IMG/VR virus record: IMGVR_UViG_3300037258_000301
Span: 32,001-96,000 of that record
Reading direction: 5' to 3' (one strand)
DNA length: 64,000 nucleotides
Origin: a virus
The notes beneath the pieces are model-generated. The model was not told the origin of the DNA. It searched no databases and worked only from the letters and a program-made list of their open reading frames with translations. Shown in pieces: positions 6,687 to 35,241 of this stretch. Position numbers and translations under genes: made by a program. The stretch's first letter is position 1. Every line of letters begins with the position of its first letter.

Positions 6687-6700
6687 AGGAGGTACACGAC

Positions 6701-7237: not shown

Positions 7238-7251
7238 GGCCAATCTCGCAA

Positions 7252-7287
7252 CTGTGCCCGATCAGGAGTCGCCGAGCTAACTGGTGA
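7252..7287 (+). promoter_or_regulatory. Putative late promoter motif CTGT-N22-TAA-N3-GTGA
   Basis: Same bipartite motif and spacing recur before about 9 structural gene starts. Confidence 0.6.
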
Positions 7288-7316
7288 CCCAGCTTTTGAT
7301 CGGGAGGCCGATATTC

Positions 7317-8951: not shown

Positions 8952-8979
8952 GCGGCCAGAGCGGGAAGGGGCACACCCC

Positions 8980-9339
8980 ATGGACTTCCGTGCGGCACAT
9001 CGGAAGATCGCTGATGGCCTGTCTTCGGACATGGCGATGGACAGTTCAATGGAGGACGCCAGTCTTCCGGCGACTCGCCAGACCTTCCAGCCTCCTCCGG
9101 CGACGGACGGCTTGGACCCTGCCGCCTCGGGTGGCGCAGCCCCGATGAATGCGGTCGAGCCCTTCGGTAAGCCCGTGGTCAGTGACCCGCTGCTGCCAGG
9201 CCCGGCCGGCCACGAATCCGACCGAGGACCGGTGCCCTACACCGGTCCGGGACCCGATGTTGACGTGACGACACTGCACGGGGCAAGCCTGGGGCTGCGT
9301 GCGGAGACCTACCAACGAAAGACGACGAGGTTCCGATGA
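8980..9339 (+). CDS. Hypothetical head-region protein
   Basis: AAGGGG RBS; KIA and HGA motifs. Confidence 0.6.
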   Translation: MDFRAAHRKIADGLSSDMAMDSSMEDASLPATRQTFQPPPATDGLDPAASGGAAPMNAVEPFGKPVVSDPLLPGPAGHESDRGPVPYTGPGPDVDVTTLHGASLGLRAETYQRKTTRFR

Positions 9340-17188: not shown

Positions 17189-17191
17189 CTA

Positions 17192-17227
17192 CTGGTGGCC
17201 TTCTCTCGGGGACCCCGTAATCAGTGA
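17192..17227 (+). promoter_or_regulatory. Putative late promoter motif (CTGG-N22-TAA-N3-GTGA)
   Basis: Matches the recurring motif and spacing. Confidence 0.55.
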
Positions 17228-17238
17228 GGAGGCCCATC

Positions 17239-17571
17239 ATGAGCCTGGGAGCGCGTACGGCCCGACACGACACCGTAGGGAGCCGGCACGAGGCCGTCCA
17301 TCCCGAGGACTATGCCGACTTCGCCGTGCAACAGCACGTGCGCACCCTCGACGGGCTGCTGGGCGTCGTCACGGCGGTCAATGACGGGCCTGTCGAGGGG
17401 TATGAGGATTACACCGTCACTCTGGACAAAGGCATGGGTGTCGGTACCTACACCAGTTCTCAGCTCAGTGCCGTCGGTGAGCCTGGTGAGGTCGGGCATA
17501 CTGCCGTGTCGGATTATCCTGAACTTGGCACGATCCTGACCGATCGGCCCGACCCCGCCAAGGAGAGCTGA
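17239..17571 (+). CDS. Small SH3/Tudor-like beta-barrel protein (putative)
   Basis: F.V.QHVRT.DG..GVVTAV...Y.V.LD pattern flanked by HEA and HTA motifs. Confidence 0.5.
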   Translation: MSLGARTARHDTVGSRHEAVHPEDYADFAVQQHVRTLDGLLGVVTAVNDGPVEGYEDYTVTLDKGMGVGTYTSSQLSAVGEPGEVGHTAVSDYPELGTILTDRPDPAKES

Positions 17572-17754
17572 ATGGATCCTTTGGTGCGGGTGGCCTACGA
17601 GGGGTACGGCGAGCACACCCATTGGCTGACCTTCGACGGCCGACCTATGCCCTCCTGGGCCGCGCTGACCCCTCGTACGAGGGATGCCTGGGCGGCTGCC
17701 ATTGAGGCCGTACTGAAAGCACAGGGCGGAGAGACGGATGTGGCACCCCTCTGA
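17572..17754 (+). CDS. Small hypothetical protein
   Basis: AAGGAG RBS; AYEGY...MPSW..L....W pattern. Confidence 0.6.
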   Translation: MDPLVRVAYEGYGEHTHWLTFDGRPMPSWAALTPRTRDAWAAAIEAVLKAQGGETDVAPL

Positions 17755-20700
17755 TCGGCTGTTCGCGCACTACGCGGCCGAGCAACCACAGGAGAGTGAG
17801 CCCGTCGCGGACGTCTCCGACCTGCCGCACACGTGCTCCTACTGTGGCTCCCAGGAGTTCGAGCAGCCCGAAGACACCGGGCGCGGTCTGCGGGCCATCT
17901 GCTCGGCCTGTGGGGGCGCCATGCTGCGCACCGAGGATGGTCAGTGGAGTCCGGCCGGTCTGAACGCCACCCACAACCACCCGCGCCCGGATGGTGACCC
18001 CGCTTCCGGTGGTGTCGGGGGCGCCGCGAACGTCGGTGTGGACCCGGACCGGATGAACGACGCTTCGGCCCGGCATGGATCACTCGACGTGATAGCGGCG
18101 CGCGCGTACCAGGACGATCCCTACGTCATGGCGAAGCCGGGCGACAAGGTACCGTGCCCGACCTGTGACGGCCACGGATCCTACGAGGAAGACGAACCCA
18201 AATCGGACGGGCAGGTCGCGCGCGAAGGTATCCCCGACGACGCCCCCGAGGGGGACTTCTACAACACCGTCACCAAGCCGTGCGAAGACTGCGATGAGCG
18301 TGGCTACCACGTACGCCAGACCGACCGGGAAGAGTTGGATACGGCCCGCGCCGAGGGCAACACTCAGTACGTCAAGGACTTCACCGAGAAGCACGAGGAC
18401 GAACCACACCCGGACCGCGTCAAGATGCCCTCCTGCCCGCCGGAGTGCCGCTTCCCGACAGCCCGCCGGGTTCACACACCCAAGCTGAGCGCGCTGAACG
18501 ACGAAGTTCCGTGGTGCGCACACCTCTACCACGGCAACTGCACCTACCCGGGCGACAAGCTGCCCAACGGCACCGTCCTCGGCATCCCGCAGGACCGGGG
18601 CCCGTGCCCGTGGAAGCACAACGCCTTCCAGCAGGCCGCGTGCCCGATCTCCGCGCCGGGCCCGATGGCCGTCATGCAGGTTAGTGCGGCACTGCACGAG
18701 GCGATGCCGTCACGTAAGCATCCGGCACCTGAGGACTTGTCCTACGACACCTATCACCCGAAGCCGGGCGAGCAGTACTTCGACGAGGCCGAAGAGAGCA
18801 ATCCCGGCTGGTCCCACCATCTGCTTCGGGCTCACCGCTCCAGCGTGGATGTTGGCGGGTCGCAACCGCACATGGTTGGCAGCGTCTACTACAGCCACCA
18901 GCCCGACGGTCCCGTGCCGATGGTCAAGGTGCACAAAATGCTCGTCGGCCACCAGTATCGCAGTCAGGGCGTGGCCAGCGCGATGCAGGACGAGTTGCAT
19001 CGCCAGTATCCGGGTCACTTCATCGACCACGGGGATCGGACGGCGGACGGCCACGGCTGGGCCTCCCAGTACGAGGCGCCCTCAGATCACATCATGTCGC
19101 AGGTAACCGGGATGATGAAGATTGTGGCGTTCTCCTGGGACGAGATCGGTGATCGTCACCCGCACATCTACGGTGACTCCGAGATTCACGGAGAAGCCGC
19201 CGATGGGGCCGACGGTCCCGGTATCGGTGACGCGGCGAACTACCTCGCGCACGAACGTCCCGACGATCCTGACGCCGAGCACCACTCGGTGTACGACATG
19301 GACTTTCATGAGGAGCACGTCGACCCGCGACACATCGACTACTCCCCTTCCGGCCGTGACGACTACCGGGTCAGTCATGCGATGGAGGGATACCGTGAAC
19401 ATCCCGACACAATGCCGCCGCTGGTGCTGGTCAAACGCCACCACGTCTACCAGGTCGCCGACGGCCACCACCGGGCCGAAGCCGCCGACGCGGTAGGGGC
19501 TCACGTGCGTGCCTATGTGGCTCACTCGCCCTATCCCGACGAGCCTTTCCGGGACGGCGAGAAGGGGCCTTTCCATCGCGCGGAACCGATCGATGAGGCT
19601 CTGCACCACGAGGCCGCCTGGGCCGACGTACGGAACAAGGCCAAGAGGATCAGGCGTGAAGGCGGCGTTACCATCGTCGTCGCCTCGACCGACGGGGTGG
19701 CCGGCGAGGTCCGGGGCGACACGCACGTCTACGAGACCGCGATCACCTGGGTGCCCGGCACCACCCGCACCGCCTACTGGACCTGTGGGTGCATGTACGG
19801 CGCTTACGCGCACGGTCCCCGCTGGGATGATCGGCCGTGTAGCCACGTGCTGGCCATGCGCTTCGAGGCCCAGTCCCGTTCGGCCCACGGTCGAGAGATC
19901 GAAGTCGACCAGAAACGCCCGGAGTGGCTCAAGCCGCAGACTTCAGTCATGGTGCAGTACGAACGGCCGAGCGAGGATCATCCGCAGGGTCGTGACCTGA
20001 CTCGTCGGGCCGTGCCGCCGGGCAATATGCGATCCACCTGGGATTCCCGATCCCGCACGAGGAGGTCTTCCTTGGAACGCACAGCGGCCATCGCGCAGGC
20101 CCAGGCCATGTTCGCCGAGGACCAGGACCCGGCCGAGGTCATCGAGCAGCTCGTGGCTACGGGTGCGACGCGCCTGGAGGCCCAGGTCGTCGTATTGGCC
20201 GCACGTGGTCGCATGGCCATCGTGCACACCGGCAAGCGATGCCCCGAATGCGGCGCTGAGCTGGACTCCACGGCTGGCCAGTGTGATGAGTGCGGTGCGG
20301 TGCTCGCGGACCGCAGCATCACGCACAGGGCCTCTTGGGGTGATGACGAGCAGCGGTGCCCGCACTGTGGTGGCTACATCGGTCCGTCGGCGTTCAAGGT
20401 CGGGAAATGCCCGCACTGCGGTCACGCGCTGGCCCACAAGACTGGTGCCGCTGACCATGGAGTGTGGTACCACGGTGCCCCTCCTGAGCGCGCAGAACAA
20501 GTACGACGAGAGGGTCTACCGAAATCCTACGGTGGCGAGTACGACCTGCGCCTGACCAGCTCTCCGCAACAGGCCAAGATCTATGGCGACATGCCTGGAC
20601 ATGGGGCGAACGCCACCGTCTTCGAGTTCCACATTCCGCACAACCATCCGGCCCTGCATCCGGTCTACGAGCACAACCTGTTCGATGAGCGCGCCCATGG

Positions 20701-22687
20701 CGTTGCCCTGAAGCAACCGCTGGGCCCTGAATACATCGCCGCCGAGCACAAGGGCACCGATCACATCGCAGCAGCCATTCCGCCCGGCTACGAGGGCGCG
20801 CAGGGGCCGTTCGAGGACGAGTACAGCGAACCACACGTCTACGCGCGTGACATCCACAGCGGCGCCGGCAACTGTGTGTGCGGGGGTGGGCTCGGTGACT
20901 CCATCCACCTCCAGGCCGCGCCCGGCGTCGATGTGCCCGAGCACCAGAGGACCGCTTCCAGCGATCTCGACTACCGCCCACACCGCACTCAGGATGCCCG
21001 CTCAGACGCGCCCATCTTCGGCAAGGGGGTCGACGACTGGGGCCTGACCCTGGTTGACTGCCCGCAATGCGGTGGACAGTCCGGTTGCGGCCACTGCGGG
21101 GGGACCGGGCAAGTGATCTCCACCGGCGACACCACGGCCAACCCGACCCCCGACCAGAACCCGGTGGCCGGCGACACCATCCGCGAGGATGGCATCTCCG
21201 ACACCAGCGCACTGCATCATGAGGCGATGAATGACTACGCCGATCCGATCAGGGGCAAAGTAGGTCCGAAAGTAAATCGGGTCAAGGGTTCGCAGGTACA
21301 ACCGGGGCACGTCATTCCCATGCGGCCCGATCCGTACAACGTAGGCGATTCGTATGCATGGCAGGAAGTTGCTCATAAGGAGCGTTGGCCAGAGGGCAAT
21401 AACTACAAGATCACGAACTCCTCTGGCTCGCACTACACCGTGGTGAGTCCTCACGAGTACGTGCAAGTTCATTCCGATACAGGGCCTGAGCACACGGCGG
21501 CCAAGACGCAATCGGGCCCTTCGGTTGCTGGAGTTGCTCTCAAGGCCGCTGACACGGGCCGCATCCTGATGCTCCAACGCGGCCTGGAGGACGAGAAGGA
21601 CCCGGCACGCGGTCTATGGGAGCATCCCGGTGGCCACATCGAGCCCGGCGACAAGACCACCCTCCATGCTGGACTCAGGGAGTGGGAAGAAGAGGTTGGT
21701 CAGCCCTTCCCCGAGGGTGGCGTTGTTACTCACGCCTGGACGAGTCCGAACGGTGTCTATCAGGGCCATGTGGTGGTGATTCCCCGCGAGCGCGACCTGG
21801 TCATGCATGACGGTCGGGTAGTGCCGAACCCGGATGACCCCAAGGGGGACAAGGCGGAACAAGCGGCCTGGTGGCATCCTGATCATGCCCGGAAGAACCC
21901 AGCCCTGCGGCCCGAGGTCAAGGCCACTCCCTGGAACAAGATCAAGGAGGCTGGAGTCGACGCCGGCCTGAAGGTCGCCGCATTGCTCTCACGTGAAGGC
22001 GCCGCGTGGGACAGCCTGTACTCATTGGAGGAGAGCCAGCCGGTCACACCGCCGCCGCACTCGAACAGCGAGAACCCGGCCAGTACCGGCTTCCTCACCA
22101 ACCAGGATCCCGCTTCCTGGTCCGAGGTCACCAAGAAGCCGCATCACTTGCTGCCGGCCGACTCGCTGGACTCACCGCTGGCCACACTGCACTCCGTACC
22201 CGAGGGCGCACTCCCGTTCACTGACGGAGACGCCGAGGACTCCACGTCGGGCACCGAGGACCCCTACAACAGCCAGACCGATACCGAATCGCTCGACGGG
22301 GACACCGACACCATCCCGGATGCGGAGATGGAAGGCTCTCCCATGGAGAATCTGGGCGGGACAGCCAAGCGTTCGGTCGCGGAGATCGTCGAGCAGTTCC
22401 AGCGCACGGCGGGGGCGGTAGCACTTCAGTCCGGTAGCGAAGGAGGTAGTGACGTGGGATTCTCCGACGGTGAGATCGCGGCCAAGGCCAAAGAGCGGCT
22501 GGCCGGCATGAGCAAGACCGCACTCAAGAACTTCAGCTTCGCCGAGCAGCAGGAACTGATCGGAGAGGGGCAGGGTTCCCGGGCCAGGAATTTTGGGGAC
22601 CTATCCCTCTCCGGAACGCACTATGAGGCGCTCCAACAGGCATTGGACACTGCCGGAGTGAACGATGACGACATTCTGATCCTGTGA
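17738..22687 (+). CDS. 1649-aa polyvalent protein: zinc fingers, GNAT, ParB/Srx, SWIM, ART-like and Nudix domains
   Basis: QYRSQGVA (GNAT motif A), PPLVL...VADGHHR (ParB/Srx), CGC...PCSHV (SWIM), WYHG...GL...LTSS...A..YG (ART/Tpt1-like), GGHIEPGD...LREWEEEVG (Nudix box). Confidence 0.8.
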   Translation: MWHPSDRLFAHYAAEQPQESEPVADVSDLPHTCSYCGSQEFEQPEDTGRGLRAICSACGGAMLRTEDGQWSPAGLNATHNHPRPDGDPASGGVGGAANVGVDPDRMNDASARHGSLDVIAARAYQDDPYVMAKPGDKVPCPTCDGHGSYEEDEPKSDGQVAREGIPDDAPEGDFYNTVTKPCEDCDERGYHVRQTDREELDTARAEGNTQYVKDFTEKHEDEPHPDRVKMPSCPPECRFPTARRVHTPKLSALNDEVPWCAHLYHGNCTYPGDKLPNGTVLGIPQDRGPCPWKHNAFQQAACPISAPGPMAVMQVSAALHEAMPSRKHPAPEDLSYDTYHPKPGEQYFDEAEESNPGWSHHLLRAHRSSVDVGGSQPHMVGSVYYSHQPDGPVPMVKVHKMLVGHQYRSQGVASAMQDELHRQYPGHFIDHGDRTADGHGWASQYEAPSDHIMSQVTGMMKIVAFSWDEIGDRHPHIYGDSEIHGEAADGADGPGIGDAANYLAHERPDDPDAEHHSVYDMDFHEEHVDPRHIDYSPSGRDDYRVSHAMEGYREHPDTMPPLVLVKRHHVYQVADGHHRAEAADAVGAHVRAYVAHSPYPDEPFRDGEKGPFHRAEPIDEALHHEAAWADVRNKAKRIRREGGVTIVVASTDGVAGEVRGDTHVYETAITWVPGTTRTAYWTCGCMYGAYAHGPRWDDRPCSHVLAMRFEAQSRSAHGREIEVDQKRPEWLKPQTSVMVQYERPSEDHPQGRDLTRRAVPPGNMRSTWDSRSRTRRSSLERTAAIAQAQAMFAEDQDPAEVIEQLVATGATRLEAQVVVLAARGRMAIVHTGKRCPECGAELDSTAGQCDECGAVLADRSITHRASWGDDEQRCPHCGGYIGPSAFKVGKCPHCGHALAHKTGAADHGVWYHGAPPERAEQVRREGLPKSYGGEYDLRLTSSPQQAKIYGDMPGHGANATVFEFHIPHNHPALHPVYEHNLFDERAHGVALKQPLGPEYIAAEHKGTDHIAAAIPPGYEGAQGPFEDEYSEPHVYARDIHSGAGNCVCGGGLGDSIHLQAAPGVDVPEHQRTASSDLDYRPHRTQDARSDAPIFGKGVDDWGLTLVDCPQCGGQSGCGHCGGTGQVISTGDTTANPTPDQNPVAGDTIREDGISDTSALHHEAMNDYADPIRGKVGPKVNRVKGSQVQPGHVIPMRPDPYNVGDSYAWQEVAHKERWPEGNNYKITNSSGSHYTVVSPHEYVQVHSDTGPEHTAAKTQSGPSVAGVALKAADTGRILMLQRGLEDEKDPARGLWEHPGGHIEPGDKTTLHAGLREWEEEVGQPFPEGGVVTHAWTSPNGVYQGHVVVIPRERDLVMHDGRVVPNPDDPKGDKAEQAAWWHPDHARKNPALRPEVKATPWNKIKEAGVDAGLKVAALLSREGAAWDSLYSLEESQPVTPPPHSNSENPASTGFLTNQDPASWSEVTKKPHHLLPADSLDSPLATLHSVPEGALPFTDGDAEDSTSGTEDPYNSQTDTESLDGDTDTIPDAEMEGSPMENLGGTAKRSVAEIVEQFQRTAGAVALQSGSEGGSDVGFSDGEIAAKAKERLAGMSKTALKNFSFAEQQELIGEGQGSRARNFGDLSLSGTHYEALQQALDTAGVNDDDILIL

Positions 22688-22694
22688 GGGGTAC

Positions 22695-22847
22695 GTGACC
22701 GGGAAACACCGCAAGGACAAGTCCAGGAGTTCTCGGATCTCGTCCCGTGAAGAGCAGGACCAAGTTGCCAAGATGACAGAGGAGGAACTCAAGGCTGAAG
22801 AGGACAAGCTTCTCTTCCCACCGAAGGATGGCACGCTCGACCAATAG
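22695..22847 (+). CDS. Small charged hypothetical protein
   Basis: GAGGGG RBS, GTG start, 50 aa. Confidence 0.4.
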   Translation: MTGKHRKDKSRSSRISSREEQDQVAKMTEEELKAEEDKLLFPPKDGTLDQ

Positions 22848-22867
22848 TTCGTCGAATAGGACATTTC

Positions 22868-23869
22868 ATGCCCACTCCCAATGCCCCCACCGGAGTCGTT
22901 GCGACGGCGGGGGCTGGTCAGGCCACCCTGACCTTCACCGCGTCGAGCAATGCCGTCGCCGCCGGGGTGACGGGCTATACGGCCACGTCCATCGACAGCA
23001 CTACGCCGGCCAACGGCGGTCAGACCGCTACCAGCGCCGGCAGCCCGATGACCGTCATGAGTTTGACCAATGGTGACAGTTACACGTTCACGATCGTCGC
23101 CAACGCTTCGGGCGGTCCTTCCTCTGCCTCGACGGCCTCTAATGCGATCACGCCAGTAGCAGTGCCTGGAGTGCCGTTGAATGTCGCGGCGATCGCTGGC
23201 AACACTTCGGCCACGGTCAGCTTTACCGCGCCGACCAGCAACGGCGGCAACGCGATCACGAGTTACACCGTGACGGCGGCTGACACTACGGTGCCGACCA
23301 ACGGTGGGCAGACGGTCAGTGGCTCTTCCAGTCCACTGTCCCTGAGTGGGCTGACCAACGGGGACGGCTACACGTTCACGGTGACCGCCACGAACAACGT
23401 TGGCCGCTCTGCCTCTTCGGCCGCATCCAACCTCATCATTCCCGCGTCACCGGCCACCACGGGTACGCCTCCCGCGCCCTACCCCAACGCACTGAGTTTT
23501 GCCGTCACCAAGGCGATCAATCTTGATCAGCTCGATGATGAGTTGGCTGCCGCGCTGGGTCAGAGTGTGATGATCGCTATCACCGGAGTGAACTACGTAC
23601 CGCCACCGAGCAGCATCTCTCCCACGAACCCGGCGACGGTATGGGTAGTCCCGAACACCGTCAACTCCACCGTTGCCCAGACCGTCATCACCAACCATGT
23701 CGCCAACGCGGACTACAACCTGCCGGCTCAGACCCAGGCATTCCTCGCCGTAATCGCGGCTGTTCAGGCCAACAATTCGATCACCTTGACCTCTCCCCAA
23801 CTCAACACCGCCGTTGTGGGACTACTGCTCCAGGTGGAGACGTTGCTCGCGGATGGTGGCGTTCCGTAA
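22868..23869 (+). CDS. Fibronectin type III domain virion protein
   Basis: Two FN3 repeats (P.AP..V.A.AG...A...F..P..NGG..IT.Y...LTNG..YTFTV.A.N). Confidence 0.85.
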   Translation: MPTPNAPTGVVATAGAGQATLTFTASSNAVAAGVTGYTATSIDSTTPANGGQTATSAGSPMTVMSLTNGDSYTFTIVANASGGPSSASTASNAITPVAVPGVPLNVAAIAGNTSATVSFTAPTSNGGNAITSYTVTAADTTVPTNGGQTVSGSSSPLSLSGLTNGDGYTFTVTATNNVGRSASSAASNLIIPASPATTGTPPAPYPNALSFAVTKAINLDQLDDELAAALGQSVMIAITGVNYVPPPSSISPTNPATVWVVPNTVNSTVAQTVITNHVANADYNLPAQTQAFLAVIAAVQANNSITLTSPQLNTAVVGLLLQVETLLADGGVP

Positions 23870-23981
23870 GCCCCTGACAGATCATTCGTCTCGCTGTGCA
23901 GGGACCTCTTCTCACGCAAGAAATTGTTGAGAGTAGACCGGCGAACGATGATGGGCTGGGAATCCAGGAGGTCCCTCCACG

Positions 23982-24431
23982 ATGAAGACGCTTGGAGCGT
24001 GGCTGAAGACCACGATCAAGACGTGGATCAAGTTCGATGATTCTCAGTCGCGCCTGATCGTGATGACCATCGTGTTCTTCTGCCTGGGTATCACCCTGTG
24101 GCTGCAACCCAGCAGGTTCCACAACACGCCCTCCTACGCCAATCTTTTGGCGTTGATCCCTACGGAGGGGTGGGGATCCATCTATCTGACTACGGCAGCA
24201 CTCTGTACTAGTTGCATCGTGAGCTATCCCCTCCGGTGGCTGACTACCGTTACGCATACGGTAGGAATCACATTGCTCGGGGTGTGGTGGTTGGCTTTTT
24301 GGATTCGGTGGCTAACGGATGGGGGGACGACAATCGTCAACGTACTGTCGTGGGGGGTGTTTCTTTACCTCATGGTCCGATCGGCCATGAAGCTGGATGA
24401 CCAGGTGAGTACTCCAGGAGGGACCCCTTGA
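23982..24431 (+). CDS. Multi-pass membrane protein (holin candidate)
   Basis: About 4 hydrophobic segments. Confidence 0.55.
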   Translation: MKTLGAWLKTTIKTWIKFDDSQSRLIVMTIVFFCLGITLWLQPSRFHNTPSYANLLALIPTEGWGSIYLTTAALCTSCIVSYPLRWLTTVTHTVGITLLGVWWLAFWIRWLTDGGTTIVNVLSWGVFLYLMVRSAMKLDDQVSTPGGTP

Positions 24432-24811
24432 TAGATGCCTCCACTCTCACCAACATCGTCGCCGTAGCGGCAGCAGTTGCCGGGACGATCGGCATCCCGC
24501 TTTGGAATAGGCATCGGGCGAAGACGAAAGAGCAGGACATGACTGACGTGGTGTCCTGGAAGGAGATCGTCAAGGCATTGCAGACAGAAGTCGCTCGACT
24601 GAGAACTCAGCTGCGTGACTCGGAGCATGATTATCAGAAGCAACTGGACGATATGGGTAGCAAGCACCGAGAGCAGATCAAGACGTTGGACTCCGATTGG
24701 GAAACCCGGATGGCCACGGCTCAGACTCGGATGGCCTCGATGGAAAGTCAGATCACGGTCCTGAACCAGCAGTTGACTAGTGCTCTACGTGGCGGAGGAA
24801 GCTTGTCGTGA
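24428..24811 (+). CDS. Membrane-anchored coiled-coil protein (lysis cassette type)
   Basis: N-terminal TM followed by a heptad-rich region. Confidence 0.55.
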   Translation: MIDASTLTNIVAVAAAVAGTIGIPLWNRHRAKTKEQDMTDVVSWKEIVKALQTEVARLRTQLRDSEHDYQKQLDDMGSKHREQIKTLDSDWETRMATAQTRMASMESQITVLNQQLTSALRGGGSLS

Positions 24812-25149
24812 GCGGTCCCGGGTGGGCATTGTCTGCCGTGTACCTCTTCGTCAGCCTGGAGAGCGTCCTCATCCAGGTGCTATCGCTGCTACGCCTACGG
24901 GGAGGCAAGCGGGATCTCACCCATCGCCACCTGGTACGTACCGTCCTGACCCGAGTGATCGTGATGTCGGTGTACGTGGGAGTGGGTGTCACGAACTTGA
25001 TCACTCATACGCTGTTGTCGATTCCGGCACTGGCGATTTTCACGGGGGCGGCTCTGGTGTGGCAGGTCAACAGCTTGCTCGACGTGCGACTTCGGAACAA
25101 GCTCAACGGTCACTCCGACGTCTCATCCACCACCGCGAATTCTCGATGA
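24808..25149 (+). CDS. Three-TM membrane protein (holin candidate)
   Basis: Three hydrophobic segments; coupled to previous gene. Confidence 0.55.
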   Translation: MSGPGWALSAVYLFVSLESVLIQVLSLLRLRGGKRDLTHRHLVRTVLTRVIVMSVYVGVGVTNLITHTLLSIPALAIFTGAALVWQVNSLLDVRLRNKLNGHSDVSSTTANSR

Positions 25150-25355
25150 GCAACCGCTGGGTGATCAAGGTCCTCGATGAGAACCGGGTCGACTTGTTGC
25201 GCTCGGGCCGGCAGGTACGCGCCGAGGTGAGTCCGACCGAGGCCAAGCGCTACCTCAAGGCCCACGCGGCGCCCGGCGATGTGGCGTTCACCGAAGACCA
25301 GACCGGGTATCGCACCCGGCTGTCCCCTCGTCAGCCGCGCCGCCGTAAGCGGTAG
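25146..25355 (+). CDS. Small basic hypothetical protein
   Basis: ATGA overlap with previous gene. Confidence 0.5.
   Translation: MSNRWVIKVLDENRVDLLRSGRQVRAEVSPTEAKRYLKAHAAPGDVAFTEDQTGYRTRLSPRQPRRRKR
25320..25355 (+). promoter_or_regulatory. Putative late promoter motif (CTGT-N22-TAA-N3-GTAG)
   Basis: Matches the recurring motif, upstream of the protease. Confidence 0.6.
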
Positions 25356-25372
25356 AGGAACGAGGAGGCCCC

Positions 25373-28300
25373 GTGCTCAAGTACGCGACGCTGGAGATCC
25401 TGGACGCCCGTATGGGGCATCCCAATGTACGACTACGCACCGCGCACCGGGCCGTGTTCAACTACATCCCCCGCGAGGGCTACCTCTACGTTCGCTCCCG
25501 AGCCATCAGCAGCAGGACCAACGACAACTACGACCACTTCTCGGCTGAGGAGATCAAGGGGAACGGCAGCACTACGGGCTACAAGACCTTCATCGGCAAG
25601 CCCGTCTTCGTCAATCATCACAATGAGGATCATCGCCGGATGCGTGGCGTCATTATTGACGCGGTGTTGCATAAGGACCGCAATCCCGATGGCTCACCGG
25701 ATACCTGGTCCGAAGTGTTGATGGAAGTCGACGCGGTGCGCTTCCCGAAGTTGGCCCAAGCAATTTTGGCTGGCCACATCGATCGCACCTCGATGGGTGT
25801 CGATGTCGAGCGGAGCACCTGTTCAGTGTGTGCCAATGTCGCCCAAACCCCCAGCGACTACTGCCGACACATCCCCGCGATGAAGGGGAAGCGTTACCAG
25901 TCCGTCGATTACAAGACGGGCGCGAAGAAGACCAATCTCGTCTATGAGAAGTGCGCCGGCCTGAAGTTCTTCGAGAACAGCCTTTTGGTCGAGGAACCAG
26001 CCGACCCATCTGCATATTTGCTTGATCATCCAGTATTGGGGCCCGGATTAGAGCACATGCTTCCACGTACGGCCAGCTCTAATGGACGAGATGGTCATGT
26101 CGGACACTCCGAAGCGGTCTCCAATTTCTTTCATGGTCAACTGACCACGCCTGGTTCGACCACGCCCAATCGCCACCCGAGGCAACAACTCCCGCTTGAT
26201 GAGTCGAACATCCTCTTCAGTCAGAGTCGCCCAGGGGTTGCGGGAGCCGGGCAGGCTTCTTCCGCGAATCACCATGTCTCGCGAGTTGTCGGCGTTGGAC
26301 CCCAGCAGCCAGTGGTGGCGGTTATGGCAGAGGGGGACATCGCAGGTATGCCGTACCACGTCGCCAGGCGGAATGGGACCGACCAACGTTTCGTAGCCCC
26401 ACCGATGGGAGCGCACCGAGGATCGCTTGGCGTCGTCCAGGGACAGACGGCCGTACCCGTTGCCGAAAGTCCCGCCAGTCCACAGATGGCAAGCATCAGG
26501 ACCACCGCTGGTGTCGATGCTGGCCAGGTAGCGTTCCAGGACGGTTTTGGTTCGAACGAAAGTGCCATGTCGGGACCTGCTGACCATAGCCTTCATATTA
26601 GCAGAACTGCTATGCACCGCGCCGACGCACTGATCATGCGCAAGACCCGTGCGGCCGACCTCTCCGACGAGGATCTAGTGGACACCGACGAAGAGCTGAA
26701 GCAGAGGGCCCGCATGCTCGGCAAGCCAGGTCAGGTTTCGAAGATCCACAAGACCGTGCAGCAGGAACGCAAACGTCGGGTCGGAGCGGTGGACCCTCGC
26801 ATCTTCGATGTGCCGGCCGACGCCTCTCCCGGATTGCCTCGTTACACCTCGGCCGGGGCATGCCCGGCTTGTCGAGGTACCGACACTATCCGGGTCGAAT
26901 CCGTTCGTGAATGCGGCGAATGTGGACACCTCTGGATGGTCGCGATGGTCGATCCGGACCAGCTGCTCGTCCAGGCCGCTCCACGTCACCAGGACCCGGC
27001 TCAGCACCCCTGGTTCCAGGCCAATCCCGTGTCCCATCAGCATGTCGTCGACATGTGGAACAAGGCCACGCCGGATGAGAAGAACTCTGGTCGTCGCTGG
27101 TACCCGGATGCTCACTTGGTGGCTCAGTCTCTGGGTAAGTTGCACCCTGACCACCCGCTCAACGGTGGTACCAAGACCGAGAAGCATGCCTACGTCGACA
27201 ACCCCGACGAGACTGACCAGAAGCACACTCACATGGCTGCCGGTGTGTTGGCCACCTACTCACCGCAGAGTCCGTGGACAACCAACATGCACAACGCGGC
27301 CCGCGCCCTGCACGAAGGCAAGGGCATCGGCGGCAAGGGCGGCGGCGTGATGGCCTCCCAACAGCAGTCCGACTCCGCCAGTCGGATCATGTCCGGCGAG
27401 AAGTACACCGACGTACTCAAGGGCCCGAAAGTCAGCGACTTCGCTCATTTGATCGAGCACGGCGGCGATGAGCATGCTGACGACCCTCATGTGGTCGTCG
27501 ATCGACATGCCCTCTCGGTGGCCACCGGGAAGCGCATGACCGAAGAGGACTACAACAGCTTCCCCAAGTCCAACCGGCATTACTACGGCCACGTCGTGCA
27601 GGCATACAAGGACGCGGCTGACCAGATCGGCCGCAAGGGCGGCGAACCGATCGCTGGACACCAGGTGCAGGCTGCCACCTGGTTGGCTCAGCAGCGGCAC
27701 AACCAGGCGTCCGAACGGGCTATCCAAGGTCAGGACAGTAATGTCGACCGGCTGAACAAGGGGCGTGAGCGCTCTCGGCAGCGGGCCGAGGAAGGGTGGT
27801 CCCAGTTCAAGCAGGAGCATGGCCTGAGTATTGGCGGTGAACCCGGCACCGGTTACACGGCTCGCAAGTTGGCCTACGGCGAACAGAAGGCTCCTGCTGA
27901 TGTGGATACTCTGCGGGACGAATCCTGCCCGATCTGTGGTGAGTCCACGGCTGCCTATGACGGTCGCAACTGCGGTGTCTGTGGTTGGGAGGCCCCGCCG
28001 AAGATGTTCGCCGATCCTGATCTGGAGATGGCCAAGCAAGTCGACCTGCGCAAGGACGTGCTTGACCCATCCGGACAGGACGGCACTGATGTCGGCGACT
28101 TCGCCGACGAGTCCGCTGGTGGCCTGGAGGTCGGTGAGGATCAGCCCGACCTGGTCTGTGACAACTGCGGTACTACGTTCGATGCGGGCCAGCCGCAGAC
28201 CACCAACACCGAGGATCCCGAGGCGGGCGATCGCGGTGACGGTCCGGCCGAGGGGGACGTCTGCCCCGAGTGTGGCGTGGGTGAATTGGTACCTCCGGAC

Positions 28301-28624
28301 GTCCTGGAGGGTGATCAGAATGAAGAAGGGCCTGAGGGATCCCTGGAGGTCGGTCCCACGGATGATGTGGATTCTCAGGGTGGGAATCCCAACGCCGTCG
28401 ATCCGAGCGGATTTGAGCAGAGTTCCGACGTGCAGGACGAAGAAGAGCCCGAGGTCGATGAGGATCAGGACTCCGACAATCCATTCGCCAAGGGAGATGC
28501 CTCTTCCGACGATGAGGACGAAACAGGCGAGGACGAAGACGAGGACGACGTTCCGCCGAAGAAGGCCAAACCCCAAACCAAGCACTCGCTGCGCGATCGC
28601 GTCTTCGGACCTCGGAATAGGTGA
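25373..28624 (+). CDS. Prohead (capsid maturation) protease polyprotein with extra domains
   Basis: N.N.D.F, GKPVFVNH.N, RG.IIDA, TSMG...CSVC...C.H, FFENS.LVE.PADP protease core (about aa 1-225), then antisense-HNH-derived segment, glycosylase-like domain, zinc ribbons, acidic tail. Confidence 0.8.
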   Translation: MLKYATLEILDARMGHPNVRLRTAHRAVFNYIPREGYLYVRSRAISSRTNDNYDHFSAEEIKGNGSTTGYKTFIGKPVFVNHHNEDHRRMRGVIIDAVLHKDRNPDGSPDTWSEVLMEVDAVRFPKLAQAILAGHIDRTSMGVDVERSTCSVCANVAQTPSDYCRHIPAMKGKRYQSVDYKTGAKKTNLVYEKCAGLKFFENSLLVEEPADPSAYLLDHPVLGPGLEHMLPRTASSNGRDGHVGHSEAVSNFFHGQLTTPGSTTPNRHPRQQLPLDESNILFSQSRPGVAGAGQASSANHHVSRVVGVGPQQPVVAVMAEGDIAGMPYHVARRNGTDQRFVAPPMGAHRGSLGVVQGQTAVPVAESPASPQMASIRTTAGVDAGQVAFQDGFGSNESAMSGPADHSLHISRTAMHRADALIMRKTRAADLSDEDLVDTDEELKQRARMLGKPGQVSKIHKTVQQERKRRVGAVDPRIFDVPADASPGLPRYTSAGACPACRGTDTIRVESVRECGECGHLWMVAMVDPDQLLVQAAPRHQDPAQHPWFQANPVSHQHVVDMWNKATPDEKNSGRRWYPDAHLVAQSLGKLHPDHPLNGGTKTEKHAYVDNPDETDQKHTHMAAGVLATYSPQSPWTTNMHNAARALHEGKGIGGKGGGVMASQQQSDSASRIMSGEKYTDVLKGPKVSDFAHLIEHGGDEHADDPHVVVDRHALSVATGKRMTEEDYNSFPKSNRHYYGHVVQAYKDAADQIGRKGGEPIAGHQVQAATWLAQQRHNQASERAIQGQDSNVDRLNKGRERSRQRAEEGWSQFKQEHGLSIGGEPGTGYTARKLAYGEQKAPADVDTLRDESCPICGESTAAYDGRNCGVCGWEAPPKMFADPDLEMAKQVDLRKDVLDPSGQDGTDVGDFADESAGGLEVGEDQPDLVCDNCGTTFDAGQPQTTNTEDPEAGDRGDGPAEGDVCPECGVGELVPPDVLEGDQNEEGPEGSLEVGPTDDVDSQGGNPNAVDPSGFEQSSDVQDEEEPEVDEDQDSDNPFAKGDASSDDEDETGEDEDEDDVPPKKAKPQTKHSLRDRVFGPRNR
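26048..26587 (-). mobile_element. HNH homing endonuclease nested antisense inside the protease ORF
   Basis: C.LWTG...GYG, SHR.GYE...GPIP...VRHTCD.PLC.N..H...G..ADN..DM, then C-terminal HTH ending GRTWKHVL; extended -10 TGCTAATAT 7 nt before ATG 26587 (ORF can extend to 26617). Confidence 0.9.
28589..28624 (+). promoter_or_regulatory. Putative late promoter motif (CTGC-N22-GAA-N3-GTGA)
   Basis: Matches the recurring motif, upstream of the scaffold gene. Confidence 0.5.
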
Positions 28625-28658
28625 CCCACCAGCAATGATCGAAGGAGAAGAGTAGATC

Positions 28659-29576
28659 ATGGCCATGCGTCCCACGCTTCAGGCGCTTGCTGAACAGCAG
28701 CAGGAACTGAATGCTCTCCGCAACACTGTCGGTGCTCAGGCTGCCCAGCTCACTCGGCAGGCCAGCCAACTCGCCGCACAGGGCACCACCATCGAGCGTC
28801 TCGGGCGTGGCCTGTTCTCGCTGGCCTCCATGGCGGGCGGTGACGTGCAGTCCAAGATTGCCTCGGCCATGCTCAAGCGGGCCGACGTGCAGAACCCGGC
28901 CCAGCCGGTACCTGAACCGCCGGCCGGACCGCCCACCGAGTCCACCCAGGAAGCGGAAACTCCGGAAGCGTTCGCCAACGTTCAGGATCCCGGTCTCGTT
29001 CCTGGATCCACCAATGACGTGGCAGCCGATGCCACCACCACCTCCTACACGCCGGGTATGGATATCGCCAGCCAGCCCTTCCACCAGCTCATCGACGTCA
29101 CCCAGCCAGTCGACGGAACACAGAACCCGCGCCCGCTTCAGGAGACCAAGACGCTCACCGATGTGCGCGTGGGGGATCCGATGAACCCGCAGACCGCGTT
29201 CCCGCTCGGAGGCGAGTTCGCCAATGCGCAACGTACCTCCAGCAAAACCGCAGCGGCCGATGCGTCCCGACGCACCATGGCCTCTCTGCGACTGGCTCGG
29301 CTGCGTCTTCAGGCCGGTACCGCCGAGGGCGAGTCGGACTTCGTGGTCGCCGCGATGATCGAAAAGGATGCTCAGGTGTCCACGGCCGCGATCGAGCAGG
29401 AAATCTCCACGCTGGAGAACGTGAAGAAGGCGGCATCCAGTCGTGCAGCCAACGCTCGACTGGTACCGAAGTCGGCCAACCGGCAGCCCCGCCCCTCCCT
29501 ACAGGGAGGCACTTCACACACCGCCAGTGCGGCTCCCGTGAGCACGGAGACTGAAGACGCCGACTTGTTCGATTAA
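28659..29576 (+). CDS. Putative scaffolding protein
   Basis: Between protease and capsid genes; coiled coils; KIA, KRA, KTA and HTA motifs; ends DADLFD. Confidence 0.6.
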   Translation: MAMRPTLQALAEQQQELNALRNTVGAQAAQLTRQASQLAAQGTTIERLGRGLFSLASMAGGDVQSKIASAMLKRADVQNPAQPVPEPPAGPPTESTQEAETPEAFANVQDPGLVPGSTNDVAADATTTSYTPGMDIASQPFHQLIDVTQPVDGTQNPRPLQETKTLTDVRVGDPMNPQTAFPLGGEFANAQRTSSKTAAADASRRTMASLRLARLRLQAGTAEGESDFVVAAMIEKDAQVSTAAIEQEISTLENVKKAASSRAANARLVPKSANRQPRPSLQGGTSHTASAAPVSTETEDADLFD

Positions 29577-29586
29577 AGGTCACGGG

Positions 29587-30009
29587 ATGGCCGATGTGAC
29601 GTCCTCCGAGGAAGTGCAGACGCCTATGTTCGTGTCAGCAGCAGAGTTTCACGACTCCATGTCCCGGACCCACCACCAACTGGCGCAGGTCTGGGACCAT
29701 ATCGGAAGATTGGAAGCACGAATGACTGACTTCACCACGGCGCTGTCGGACTTGGATGCCGCCGACGCCAGCATCATCAGCGAGCTGTCCGCTCTTGTCA
29801 CCCAGGTGCAGACCCTCCAGGGTCAGATCACCAGTGGTGACACTGCTGCCGCTGCGGCGCTGGCTGCTGAGATCGAGACTCGGGTCACCGCCCTCAACAG
29901 CGCGGTACAGAGTGCCCAGTCCACCCTCAATCCGGCCCCGTCCGGTGATGCGAGTACTGCTCCCACCGATCCCACCACTCCGACCGACCCGGCTGCTCCT
30001 GCGGCCTGA
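29587..30009 (+). CDS. Coiled-coil protein with Pro/Thr-rich tail
   Basis: Heptad pattern; PTDPTTPTDP; start uncertain. Confidence 0.55.
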   Translation: MADVTSSEEVQTPMFVSAAEFHDSMSRTHHQLAQVWDHIGRLEARMTDFTTALSDLDAADASIISELSALVTQVQTLQGQITSGDTAAAAALAAEIETRVTALNSAVQSAQSTLNPAPSGDASTAPTDPTTPTDPAAPAA

Positions 30010-30023
30010 CGGTTCCTCGAACG

Positions 30024-30066
30024 GAAACCCCCAACGCTGTGGACCTCGGCGTTGGGGGTTTCTTTT
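30024..30066 (+). terminator. Intrinsic terminator
   Basis: 14-bp stem gaaacccccaacgc/gcgttgggggtttc followed by tttt. Confidence 0.85.
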
Positions 30067-30176
30067 GCCCTCACTGTCGTGTCTTGACCTCTACCGGTGG
30101 GAACGAGCAGAGGAGGGAGTCCTTCCCGGAAGCCCCTTCTGGATTGAATAACTCCAATGAAGGGATGGGAGGGAAA

Positions 30177-30698
30177 ATGATCCGGACACCGCTGAATCTC
30201 AGCTACATCAAGCGTGAGTTGCGCCCGCTGTACGGCTGGTCTCAGGCGACGCCGAAGGCTGCTTTCGTCGATCCTTCGTGGACGTCATCCGTTGACATCT
30301 ATCCCGGCATGGTCATGCAGAAGATGTTGGGCGACAACGTCACTCTGCTCAATGCCTCGGGTACCCCGTATGGTCTCGCATCGTTCCTGATGGCCCCCAA
30401 GCTGGGCATCGACGAGATCACCGAGACAGGCGTCAACGCCTGCGCGGTATGGGTTATGGGTCCCGACGCCGAGTTCGAGATCCTCGCGCCGTCATTCGAC
30501 ACCACGGCGACCTGGACCGACCCCGGCAACGGCACCACCGCCTTGGTCTACGCGTACACCACGGGGGCCTATCAAGGCGTGTTGTGCCCCTCCACTGGTT
30601 CGCAGGGCTCCGTCAGTGCACTTCCGGTCGCCCGGCTGTTGCAGGTGGCCTCGACATCCAAGATCCGTATCGGCGGCCTTCAGGCCCGGACTGCGTGA
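30177..30698 (+). CDS. Capsid decoration/cement protein (putative)
   Basis: Immediately upstream of the MCP; GGGAGG RBS; recalled resemblance to cluster C decoration proteins. Confidence 0.6.
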   Translation: MIRTPLNLSYIKRELRPLYGWSQATPKAAFVDPSWTSSVDIYPGMVMQKMLGDNVTLLNASGTPYGLASFLMAPKLGIDEITETGVNACAVWVMGPDAEFEILAPSFDTTATWTDPGNGTTALVYAYTTGAYQGVLCPSTGSQGSVSALPVARLLQVASTSKIRIGGLQARTA

Positions 30699-30708
30699 GG
30701 GAGTGACG

Positions 30709-31809
30709 ATGACGAACACTTTGGTTCGCACCAGCGCCCTCGGGGGCCGGATCGCGAAGAAGTCTGACGACTACGTGTCGCAGATCCTGGCCCGTCGTGA
30801 GAAGAGCGGTGCGCTCTCCCACGAAGCCAAGGTCGACAAGCTGGCACTGATCCTCTCCGACGAGAGCAACGGCATCAAGCGTCTCGGCGTCGGCATGATC
30901 GGCCCGATTCAGCTCAAGCTGCGGTATCAGGGCATCACCCGCAACGTGCTCATCGAGGACCCGGTCACCCCGGGCACCCCCGTCGAGTACGACGTGTGGG
31001 ACGACCTTGGCCAGGCATACATCATGTCCGGGCACGAGGGCGAAGTCCGCATCACCCCGTTCGAAGGCAAGCGCGTTCCGATCCGGTTCTTCCGTATCGC
31101 CTCGCGCCCCGCGATCCGCAAGGAAGACCTGTTCTACCTGCGGATCAACGCTGTCGAGCAGGCGCAGGACGAGACCAAGCAGGCCATCCTCAAGCAGGAA
31201 GACTCGCGGCTGCTCGTACTGCTCCAGTCCGCCGCGAATGCCTACGCCACGCGGCCGGACCACGTCATCACCCCGAACCACAACGTCACGGAGGCCAGCG
31301 GATACTTCACCCCCGCCGGCCTGTACGAGGCAGTTCGTCAGACCGACATGCACGAGTTGCAGTCGGCCCGCATTCTGGTGAACCCCTACGACTTCCGTGA
31401 CTTCTACCAGTGGGACATCAACACCACTGGCTGGGCCTTCAAGGACAGGGTGGTGGCCGGAGAGACCATCACCACGTTCGGTGAGTTCCAGTTCCAGCGG
31501 TCGATCATGGTCCCCGCCGGCACGATGTACCTCACCCCGGAGCCGAACTTCCTCGGCGTCTTCCCGGTTCTCTACTCGCTCGATGTCGAGGAGAACCACA
31601 ACGTGGAGGCGTTCTGGAAGGGCTGGGTGTTCGACGAGATGGTCAACATGACCATTCTCAACCCGCGTGGCATCGCTACCGTCACGAAGGCGTCGGAAGC
31701 GCTCTACTCCGACCCGACGTCGCTCGGTGGTGCCGCAACCGGCCTCACCTCGCCGCCGGCCACGGAGTCCGCGCTCAACCCGCCAGGCGCCTACACCACC
31801 TGGCCGTGA
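30709..31809 (+). CDS. Major capsid protein
   Basis: Strong codon bias, followed by a terminator; PIQLKLRYQGITRNVL.ED, KQED.RL, GWVFDE...ILNPRG (HK97-fold MCP ending). Confidence 0.9.
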   Translation: MTNTLVRTSALGGRIAKKSDDYVSQILARREKSGALSHEAKVDKLALILSDESNGIKRLGVGMIGPIQLKLRYQGITRNVLIEDPVTPGTPVEYDVWDDLGQAYIMSGHEGEVRITPFEGKRVPIRFFRIASRPAIRKEDLFYLRINAVEQAQDETKQAILKQEDSRLLVLLQSAANAYATRPDHVITPNHNVTEASGYFTPAGLYEAVRQTDMHELQSARILVNPYDFRDFYQWDINTTGWAFKDRVVAGETITTFGEFQFQRSIMVPAGTMYLTPEPNFLGVFPVLYSLDVEENHNVEAFWKGWVFDEMVNMTILNPRGIATVTKASEALYSDPTSLGGAATGLTSPPATESALNPPGAYTTWP

Positions 31810-31825
31810 TCGGTCCGCTCCACGG

Positions 31826-31857
31826 AAGCCCCCACCGTCTCGGCGGTGGGGGCTTTC
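31826..31857 (+). terminator. Intrinsic terminator after MCP
   Basis: 12-bp stem aagcccccaccg/cggtgggggctt followed by t. Confidence 0.8.
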
Positions 31858-31931
31858 CCCTCGATCGCGAAGAAGAACCACTGTAGGGCCCAGTCATGGA
31901 CCGGAATCAATCATTGAGCAAGGAGGTCCCC

Positions 31932-32459
31932 ATGCCCACCATGGTGCGTAATCACCAAGCAGGACCCACCACCTTCAGCGACGACGCGACCGGCCAGAAG
32001 CCCGTCGTGTGGCAAGGCGCGGGTGATGTGAACCGACAGGACGTCCGCCCCATCCCGGATGCCTTCCTGGAGTCGGTGGCGTTCCTACAGGCCGTGGAGA
32101 ACGGCATTTTCTCCATCATCGATAGTGAACGCGACCGTACCGCCATTCAGGATGCGCACCGCCGGCAGTTCCAGGCCGCGCAGGAGCGTCAGCAGAGTGC
32201 CGGTACCGAATACTTCGACTCCAAGCCGAACGAAGACATCATCGTCACCTCCTGCATCGGGCCGGCCGGCAAGACCGGCAAGCTCTGTGGTGAAACGGTC
32301 ACGCTGACCGCCCAGCAGCGCGGCAACACCGTGCCGTTGTGCATCAAGCACAGCTACCTCAAGGTGCAGTTCATCCCGACCGAGACCGGCAAAGTCGTCG
32401 ATGGCAAGCCCGAGGTGACGTGGTCGCGGCCCACGCTCGGCCAGCCTCTCGACCACTGA
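31932..32459 (+). CDS. Hypothetical virion-region protein
   Basis: AAGGAGG RBS; C..C..C..H cluster. Confidence 0.7.
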   Translation: MPTMVRNHQAGPTTFSDDATGQKPVVWQGAGDVNRQDVRPIPDAFLESVAFLQAVENGIFSIIDSERDRTAIQDAHRRQFQAAQERQQSAGTEYFDSKPNEDIIVTSCIGPAGKTGKLCGETVTLTAQQRGNTVPLCIKHSYLKVQFIPTETGKVVDGKPEVTWSRPTLGQPLDH

Positions 32460-34476: not shown

Positions 34477-35241
34477 TTATAGGACCCAACCCCAGGTTAT
34501 TCTCGCTACTACCTTGCGCACCACTTCACGTTTGAGCCCGAGAGAATCGGCTAATCTCTGCTGACTGATGGTCTCCTCGGCATATCGTCGGCGGATGAGA
34601 CGTACCAGATCTTCATTGATCACTGCGTTGTAGTGATCAATACCTCGGGGCGCTCGTTGTCGCTTCTTGAATACCATATCGTCTGAATTGTCCTGATGTG
34701 TGCCCTTGAACCAGTGTGTCGGATTTTGACACGGTGGGTTGTCGCAGGTATGACAGACGATCTCTCCGGCGACTAGCTGATCATCTGGATTGGCAAAATC
34801 CCAGCCGAAGCGATGAGCGCGAGCAGTGACGGTCTTCTCGTCCTCCCGCCAAGACATAAGACCGTAACCGTCCCTGTCCCGAGATTGCTCTTGCCAAGGC
34901 CAGCAGTCATCGGGTCCGAGTACGGTGAACTTGGATCGGTAGAGGTCTGCCGGAGTGCGATCGAGATTGCGGCTCACCAAGACCCAGTGGTCCATGTTCT
35001 GACACGCCTTGAAGCCGCAGGTGTTGGAGAGCTTGTACCCCTCGGGAATGAAGTCGTGAGTCAATTCCCACCCGAATCGATGGGCACCCGTATCGATGTG
35101 TCGTTCACCTACGGTGTAGGTGAACTTGGCATTGCCGTACTTATCGACCTTCGCACTCCACCCGATACACCCCCGACTGCCGTCTGGTCCGAACACGAGC
35201 TTGGCAACGTAGCGCTGCTCAGAAGTCAGTGACGTAGACAT
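34477..35241 (-). mobile_element. Free-standing HNH endonuclease with tandem HNH-like repeats
   Basis: Two C..W...YG...AHRFGW units; the second is intact (VCHTCDNPPCQNP.H...GT..DN..DM); C-terminal HTH; -10 TAAAGT 7 nt before ATG. Confidence 0.9.

Follow-up and report, generated by a model that had tools for sequence, protein, structure and literature searches.

The window analysed here is a 64,000-nucleotide (nt) stretch of DNA, positions 32,001 to 96,000 of the virus record IMGVR_UViG_3300037258_000301; the record is 151.6 kb long, comes from a soil phage, and is rated complete. On its minus strand, a gene for an HNH homing endonuclease lies wholly within a plus-strand gene for a prohead-protease polyprotein, and the host frame runs through it without interruption. 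We hold with high confidence that this is a nested, read-through, and mobile HNH gene in a protease polyprotein gene. The features of the locus, with the evidence for each in brackets, are as follows (nt positions of the window; aa, amino acids; GC3, GC content at third codon positions).

25373..28624, plus strand: host gene for the prohead-protease/cargo polyprotein (open reading frame, ORF, of 1083 aa, including a 180-aa read-through segment).
25373..26059, plus strand: predicted T4 gp21-like (assemblin-fold) protease domain, with C-terminal ..P-A-D-P..G-L-E-H-M (AlphaFold2 model, VIA structural alignment).
26006..26050, plus strand: last ~15 host codons before the HNH gene, with synonymous changes towards A/T; the last codon, TTA, also serves as the HNH stop (GC3).
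26048..26587, minus strand: homing-endonuclease gene, HNH plus C-terminal helix-turn-helix (HTH), 179 aa (phrog and Pfam matches, invariant columns, codon-position GC).
26057..26599, no strand: segment of 540 nt absent from empty alleles, with a boundary that slides by 3 nt (protein alignment, codon view, DNA alignment).
26063..26077, plus strand: P-R-T-A-S at the start of the read-through peptide, proposed upstream protease site with the cut after Ala (antisense of the HNH tail A-G-R-T-W).
26595..26600, minus strand: -10-like hexamer TAATAT, 7 nt before the HNH ATG (conserved in nested alleles).
26600..26614, plus strand: S-R-T-A-M, the native post-protease [KR]-[TIV]-A site of the host, now at the end of the read-through peptide (aligns with empty alleles).
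26615..28624, plus strand: downstream cargo with Zn ribbons, DUF7178, and an acidic tail, lacking a start signal of its own (DUF7178 match, allele comparison).

The nested protein matches phrog_1872 (3e-25) and other HNH phrogs; Pfam yields HNH_3 at 1.3e-4 (22 bits, just under the gathering score of 24.8) and, for the HTH part, Sigma70_r4 at 1.6e-4. A tblastn search of phages gave 1174 matches, the homologs being annotated as homing endonucleases and the nearest ones belonging to T7-like phages and actinophages. Residues H80, C82, D83, C87, N89, and H92 are invariant in six nested HNH copies. The gene is codon-in-register with the host gene and is not intergenic, since it lies wholly inside 25373..28624; its TAA stop is the plus-strand TTA (Leu) at 26048-26050, and the host frame has no stop across it. 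A preliminary description of the locus had placed a complete HNH and HTH gene here, antisense and in register, with the same stop, and the ORFs and family matches confirm this. It gave the extent as 26048-26617, of which the end stands; as for the start, conservation places it at the ATG at 26587 (M-V-S-R...) instead of the GTG at 26617.

Codon-position GC flips exactly over the HNH segment (GC1 exceeds GC3 in the plus frame), and between the window and the occupied allele L006 the HNH protein is 82% identical, the plus-frame peptide 56%. Hence the minus strand codes, and the plus reading is a shadow, as had been supposed. Purifying selection on both full frames is not seen: only the HNH frame is conserved overall, and conservation of the plus frame exceeds it only at the Ala-Ser columns discussed below and at one further column; apart from these columns, selection on the plus frame amounts to keeping it free of stops. 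The source run was also assembled in Logan, and that second assembly agrees across both junctions (0 differences). Two further HNH-like matches, 40% and 29% identical to the nested HNH, occur in a neck-region cassette of the window (34579-35232, minus strand). Automatic gene calls in L006, L170, L171, and L172 report the long host ORF only and miss the nested HNH, and nested elements of this kind are probably under-reported in databases.

Both states of the locus are found among relatives. Three homologs (P0003, P0004, and P0005, 72-76% identical) have exactly 180 aa fewer, between ..G-L-[EDG]-H-L and [AS]-K-[TIV]-A-V-H-R-A-D, and L007, L008, and L009 are empty alleles. The empty allele and the insertion ends, whose definition the preliminary description had called for, are thus in hand: empties are 540 nt shorter, and the insert runs from ~26057/26060 to 26596/26599, with an ambiguity of one His codon. 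The HNH ORF fills 537 of the 540 inserted nt, leaving 3 nt outside. Occupied alleles are confirmed at the DNA level in ten cases: the window, L006, L012 (=L091), L013 (=L092), L014 (=L093), L019 (=L095), L090, L170, L171, and L172, with HNH identities of 43-82% to that of the window. In all ten, the HNH gene is antisense, in register 0, and directly follows the protease domain, within a host ORF that stays open; stops on the plus strand, named beforehand as the observation that would speak against read-through, occur in 0/10. Six of them (L006, L012, L013, L014, L019, and L090) have open plus-strand ORFs of 1091 to >2000 codons. Seven of the ten were found without regard to the openness of the host frame, by look-up of P0002 and by searches independent of ORF calls, starting from the protease domain and from the HNH; L170, L171, and L172 were taken from long proteins in a protein search. 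A further nested case, P0072, is known by its protein signature only.

In L012, L013, L171, and P0072, 7-12 host codons (..L-G-x-x-D-x-R-G-[LM]) stand on both sides of the HNH gene. The duplicated tracts (L012, 5640-5663 and 6213-6245; L013, 5643-5663 and 6216-6236) resemble a long target duplication, with diverged DNA and a conserved peptide. The "empty" L040 shares a near-identical 23 nt with L019 (~6120-6143), just upstream of the L019 HNH start, and has ~100 nt in place of the HNH gene; this allele may have been occupied once and retain a remnant after deletion, instead of never having held the HNH gene.

The distribution of the HNH gene does not follow that of its host. On the protease tree, occupied alleles are scattered, with at least four gains or losses forced by well-supported branches, and each occupied allele has an empty sister. 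Of the seven nested copies placed on the HNH tree, six group in a single clade (Shimodaira–Hasegawa approximate likelihood ratio test, 98), the position of L019 being unresolved; the L090 HNH pairs with that of the window, though the L090 protease is distant. A patchy distribution on the protease tree together with a single HNH clade indicates that the HNH gene is mobile, and, judged from the two trees, this pattern is the signature of a homing element revisiting one site.

The flank upstream of the insert is recoded. The HNH stop is itself an altered host codon: Leu CTG in empties has become TTA in the window and CTA in L006, and TCA (Ser) stands there in L014 and L090. GC3 of 26006..26050 is 0.31, against 0.79 in the gene body; a drop over the last ~13-16 host codons is seen in 7/7 nested alleles (mean -0.39), against -0.04 in 57 empties (Mann–Whitney U test, p=3.6e-5). 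In the free-standing seg and mob endonuclease genes of T-even phages, a variant (recoded) flank is expected to give self-immunity and to travel by co-conversion (PMC2988022). The recoded tract here looks as a cleavage-immune target or co-conversion tract would, which is a hint at such a role. In another soil run, a 178-nt contig matches 25852-26007 at 99% identity and departs from the window at 26008, where the recoded tract begins; this, too, is a hint only.

Expression of the HNH gene probably starts at its own ATG. A TANNNT box precedes the start codon (ATG or GTG) by exactly 7 nt in 7/7 nested alleles and also in L171, and, judged by this spacing, the transcript is probably leaderless and starts at 26587. 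An extended -10 region overlapping the downstream R-T-A had been described earlier; the hexamer holds, being conserved in 7/7, and the "TG" extension is not conserved. A generic sigma-70 scan of 25800-26800 found no full -35/-10 promoter. Of the sequencing runs listed as containing this DNA, none is an RNA run.

The host frame can be open by chance or because read-through is required. From host codon usage, the chance of an open frame is ~0.2-0.37 for the window alone, which bears out the caution voiced at the outset that an open frame by itself is weak evidence in GC-rich genes. Depletion of TTA, CTA, and TCA codons, which had been put forward as a check, does distinguish nested genes: 7/7 nested copies are stop-free on the antisense strand, against 9/23 free-standing homologs of similar GC3 (Fisher's exact test, p=0.006, or 0.02 for five lineages). 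Synonymous sites are nearly saturated among the nested copies, which share a codon at 35-64% of identical residues. Restart of translation behind the HNH gene finds little to rest on. The Met at 26612 occurs in the window only, with Val or Ala there in other alleles, and no sequence resembling a Shine–Dalgarno (SD) site is visible upstream of internal starts in the window, nor is one conserved; the earlier remark that the internal ATGs lack such a site thus extends to the family. The stop-free frame fits the absence of a conserved restart codon for the downstream half. Taken alone, the stop-free frame is moderate evidence for required read-through; from the allele comparison as a whole, we consider obligatory read-through of the host frame likely.

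The host product belongs to a large and variable family. It matches phrog_2774 and phrog_18299 (head maturation protease, 9.5e-26) over residues ~25-215, and DUF7178 at residues 615-774 is the sole Pfam match in its 1083 aa. The modelled N-terminal domain (AlphaFold2 model, mean predicted local confidence, pLDDT, 78) aligns with T4 gp21 (5jbl_B) at VIA Z=10.3 and a root-mean-square deviation of 2.6 over 127 aa, and with the herpesvirus proteases (assemblins) at VIA Z of 6-8; Foldseek gave a weak match (E=0.02). By this model, the domain has the T4 gp21/assemblin fold. Residues His82, His87, His100, and Ser140 are invariant in 24 protease homologs and include the candidate catalytic His and Ser. 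Megablast of the host gene against INPHARED phages gave 0 matches, and a sequence-profile search of PDB returned nothing useful.

Homologs of the polyprotein in metagenomes number 557, mostly of ~800-1300 aa, and the gene precedes scaffold-like and cement genes. Long fusions of a protease with variable cargo are also found in mycobacteriophage Cali (gp93, 1286 aa) and Eggerthella phage LE2-3 (gp71, 1037 aa). The linker between the protease and DUF7178 ranges from ~0 to >1000 aa across the family and holds many different inserted domains, and the gaps after the protease domain measure 1 to >4000 nt. The cargo differs widely among relatives, with a GNAT-like motif in L019 (~6200-6330), NUDIX and ParB annotations, and many Zn ribbons, which suggests a protease-led delivery vehicle for packaged proteins. 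True inteins occur in two relatives, inside the protease domain of P0006 (residues ~162-560, near the conserved Cys164 region) and, of the LAGLIDADG type, after DUF7178 in P0053 (residues ~576-948); the polyprotein gene is thus a hotspot for several kinds of selfish element. In L009, an HNH_3 gene lies directly upstream of the empty polyprotein gene on the opposite strand (2406-2972, minus); it was considered as a free-standing copy of the nested element and rejected, as it encodes an unrelated HNH_3 protein.

Two candidate protease sites lie around the read-through peptide, R-T-A-S at 26066-26077 and R-T-A-M at 26603-26614, as first described. The upstream one is, as also pointed out then, the reverse complement of the HNH C-terminal A-G-R-T-(W) codons. 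In occupied alleles the peptide starts with P-[RH]-x-A-S, of which Ala-Ser is the only invariant part: it is kept in 7/7, while the HNH residues opposite vary (G/S; A/R/T), and its Ser codon switches among AGC, TCG, and AGT. Three further alleles have PRRAS, PRAAS, and PRTAS. Antisense Ala-Ser is found in 1/29 free-standing homologs with a W-x-H-[VIL] tail (Fisher's exact test, p ~1e-6, uncorrected for relatedness). The Ala follows the protease domain at a distance of 7-9 residues, as does the native [KR]-T-A in empties, and the empty P0022 natively reads ..E-H-L-A-R-T-A-S, near the ..E-H-M-L-P-R-T-A-S of the window. That the upstream site is a functional element of the host strand appears well supported by these comparisons.

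The downstream site has another origin. Empties have A-K-T-A-V, A-K-I-A-V, or S-K-V-A-V at the corresponding place. Of the bracket of two R-T-A sites initially proposed, the upstream member therefore stands, in the form P-[RH]-x-A-S under host-strand selection; the downstream member is native host sequence and is not universal among occupied alleles.

The motif [KR]-T-A occurs within 40 aa after the protease domain in 23/64 homologs. In the polyprotein tails of the 64 homologs it is found 122 times, against 29.5±5.9 in shuffles (~4-fold), in 162 different contexts, most of them in variable interdomain stretches, with a preference for R/S/Q at P4 and for A/S at P1'. Of the 20 occurrences in the window, the head module (14933-32459) accounts for 14, and the ~9000 aa of tail proteins for one. 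Flanking motifs, recommended for checking, are thus enriched in polyprotein tails and concentrated in head proteins. Among the latter, a 1649-aa polyvalent head protein (17738-22687) has six; the product of 17224-17571 carries one close to its N-terminus, the scaffold-like product of 28659-29576 has one, and that of 30039-30698 has one close to its C-terminus. In the read-through peptides, [KR]-T-A is present in 5/7, against 1/23 antisense translations of free-standing homologs. From these counts, [KR]-T-A is a candidate recognition motif of the prohead protease in this phage group.

Two other motifs were discarded or set aside. G-L-E as a phiKZ- or T4-type site, cut after Glu, was rejected, because the position holds E/D/G/Q/A/K across the family. 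For the conserved plus-strand P-A-D-H that closes the read-through peptide, an origin by copying of the host P-A-D-P was weighed; the similarity of the DNA is no more than the shared residues require, and the sequence is explained by the HNH start M-V-S-R. This copying is left unproven.

These observations can be joined into the following scheme, which we favour overall as somewhat more probable than all its alternatives together: a homing HNH gene colonised the linker behind the protease, is read through, and the resulting junk is trimmed in maturation. A free-standing mobile HNH gene would have entered, antisense and in register, the short linker that follows the gp21-like protease domain. 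The HNH protein would be made from its own leaderless transcript, would cut empty alleles at or near the unrecoded tract, and would then be copied in by repair. The late polyprotein mRNA would be translated straight through the antisense HNH gene, placing ~180 junk residues between protease and cargo, and selection would keep the host frame stop-free because the cargo lacks a start of its own. The protease itself would free the junk during head maturation, cutting after the Ala of P-[RH]-x-A|S at the start of the junk and, at its end, at the native [KR]-[TIV]-A site of the host or at a duplicated host segment. The two cuts would leave a protease ending in ..R-T-A and a cargo starting with M-H-R-A-D, i.e., near-native ends. 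To the excision step itself, the proteolytic removal of the junk peptide by the phage's own protease, we give about even chances on the motif evidence.

Several points weigh against this scheme. P2 and P3 of the upstream site vary (T/S/R/A/H and R/H, respectively). The downstream site is not universal, being K-I-A in L006 and absent or replaced in L013, L014, and L019. Part of the [KR]-T-A excess comes from shared conserved domains, e.g., from inside DUF7178. Herpesvirus assemblins cut Ala|Ser; T4 gp21 cuts after Glu, hence the assemblin analogy for Ala|Ser is loose. Given the hypervariable length of the linker, the junk might be tolerated without excision. The per-locus chance of finding no TTA, CTA, or TCA in ~180 codons, from host codon usage, is 0.16-1.0, and in L013 an antisense frame (5661-9668, minus strand, in register) is open over 1335 codons; in these GC-rich phages, long antisense ORFs occur commonly and do not count as evidence of genes. 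Finally, the nested copies are relatives, and the Fisher tests overstate their independence.

The strongest competing explanation, which we consider unlikely though worth serious thought, keeps the read-through and drops the excision: the junk would be tolerated as a disordered spacer in a hypervariable linker, and the likenesses to P-x-x-A-S and R-T-A would be incidental. Such a linker, ~0 to >1000 aa long with its many inserted domains, would accommodate one more; the downstream motif is not conserved among occupied alleles; and at the upstream site the conserved HNH Trp dictates the Pro, and a conserved Gly (codon GGC) partly dictates the Ala. What an incidental likeness leaves unexplained is the Ser after the Ala, kept through codon-family switches while the HNH residue varies (A/R/T) and matched in only 1/29 free-standing homologs, as well as the [KR]-T-A in 5/7 junk peptides against 1/23. 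The host codons duplicated on both sides of the insert in several lineages would likewise be unneeded for a mere spacer. A split host gene is improbable by comparison. Here protease and cargo would arise as separate products, through an internal start, processing of the transcript, or termination, and GC-rich codon usage would account for the open frame; per locus, chance indeed leaves an in-register antisense frame open in 16-100% of cases, and genes invaded by known free-standing endonucleases end up encoding two polypeptides (PMC2988022). The upstream half, however, lacks a stop in 10/10 alleles, against 9/23 stop-free controls, the Met at 26612 is confined to the window with no conserved SD-like sequence, and no terminator-like site was found in 25800-26800 on either strand.

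Two further accounts concern the nature of the element. That the HNH is a domesticated phage gene, e.g., a packaging-associated HNH overlapping the protease gene by chance, and not a selfish one, seems very improbable. HNH proteins that assist terminases are known, and the gene does lie in the head and packaging module; close relatives without it nevertheless keep an intact module, its combination of HNH_3 with a C-terminal HTH and its annotated nearest relatives are those of homing endonucleases, and the HNH and host trees are incongruent. Classical removal, by a group I or II intron carrying an antisense endonuclease gene or by an intein, can be given hardly any credence. Antisense endonuclease genes are known in nuclear group I introns (PMC9548176), and relatives of this same gene do carry true inteins (P0006, P0053). 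Against this, Rfam at permissive thresholds (up to E=10) detected no intron family in 25300-27300, and there is no room for a ribozyme core because the HNH ORF fills 537 of 540 nt; a Pfam search of the 1083-aa product found no Hint or intein domain in the plus frame, the nuclease is antisense, and the plus peptide has the composition of an antisense shadow. The initial statement that intron and intein features are lacking is therefore upheld.

According to the current view, homing endonuclease genes persist inside genes only by means of self-splicing introns, inteins, or splitting of the host gene. Antisense in-frame nesting with read-through in a polyprotein would be a recurrent and evolutionarily stable alternative (at least 10 alleles, with HNH identity down to 43%), and polyprotein junctions would then be safe harbours for selfish DNA. 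More specifically, and tentatively, at slightly less than even odds, we propose a third way of living in an essential gene beside introns and inteins: antisense in-frame insertion at a cleavage junction, with the C-terminal HNH codons shaped into a protease site on the opposite strand, and proteolysis without ligation. The locus also offers a natural example of two-strand selection on few codons, the stop being a Leu codon and the Trp tail also spelling Pro-x-x-Ala-Ser, and, for the actinophage-like protease–cargo polyproteins, a large family so far uncharacterised, it provides a cleavage motif open to testing ([KR]-T-A, Ala|Ser). Nested genes of this kind escape gene callers. In the literature, of which our coverage is incomplete and no proof of novelty, we found no precedent for an antisense, in-frame endonuclease gene lacking intron and intein, nor for DUF7178.

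Among known systems, the T-even seg and mob genes share with the nested HNH a nuclease with a DNA-binding tail, the lack of an intron or intein, a patchy distribution, and a promoter of their own partly embedded in neighbouring coding sequence (PMC2988022). They sit between genes; the HNH gene is nested within an ORF, antisense and in register, and the host frame continues through it. In the split genes Aeh1 nrdA/mobE, phage 43A/43B, and T4 39/60 with mobA, a free-standing endonuclease has likewise invaded an essential coding region, and the phage copes at the protein level (PMC2988022). There, two cistrons are formed and their products reassemble, whereas here there is no stop or restart, a single precursor is made, and the halves are meant to separate anyway. 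The "fractured genes" resemble our case in having an endonuclease inside a host gene and a post-translational repair; the gene for the endonuclease is flanked by split inteins, and sense-frame split-intein halves perform trans-splicing (PMC2677866), whereas here there is no Hint domain and cutting by the maturation protease is proposed.

Inteins with homing-endonuclease domains are similarly in-frame insertions in conserved phage genes that are removed from the protein, as is proposed here; they are encoded on the sense strand, splice themselves, and religate their flanks, whereas here the nuclease is read from the other strand, the sense frame yields junk, and removal would require no ligation. 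Group I introns with antisense endonuclease genes (nuclear ribosomal DNA, L2066) share the location of the endonuclease opposite the host strand (PMC9548176); they are spliced by a ribozyme in ribosomal RNA, whereas here no ribozyme was found and the host is a translated ORF. Processing by T4 gp21 and herpesvirus assemblins is matched in the predicted protease fold and in a short recurring motif concentrated in head proteins; the gp21 motif is L/I-x-E, and the motif here, a candidate site, is [KR]-T-A.

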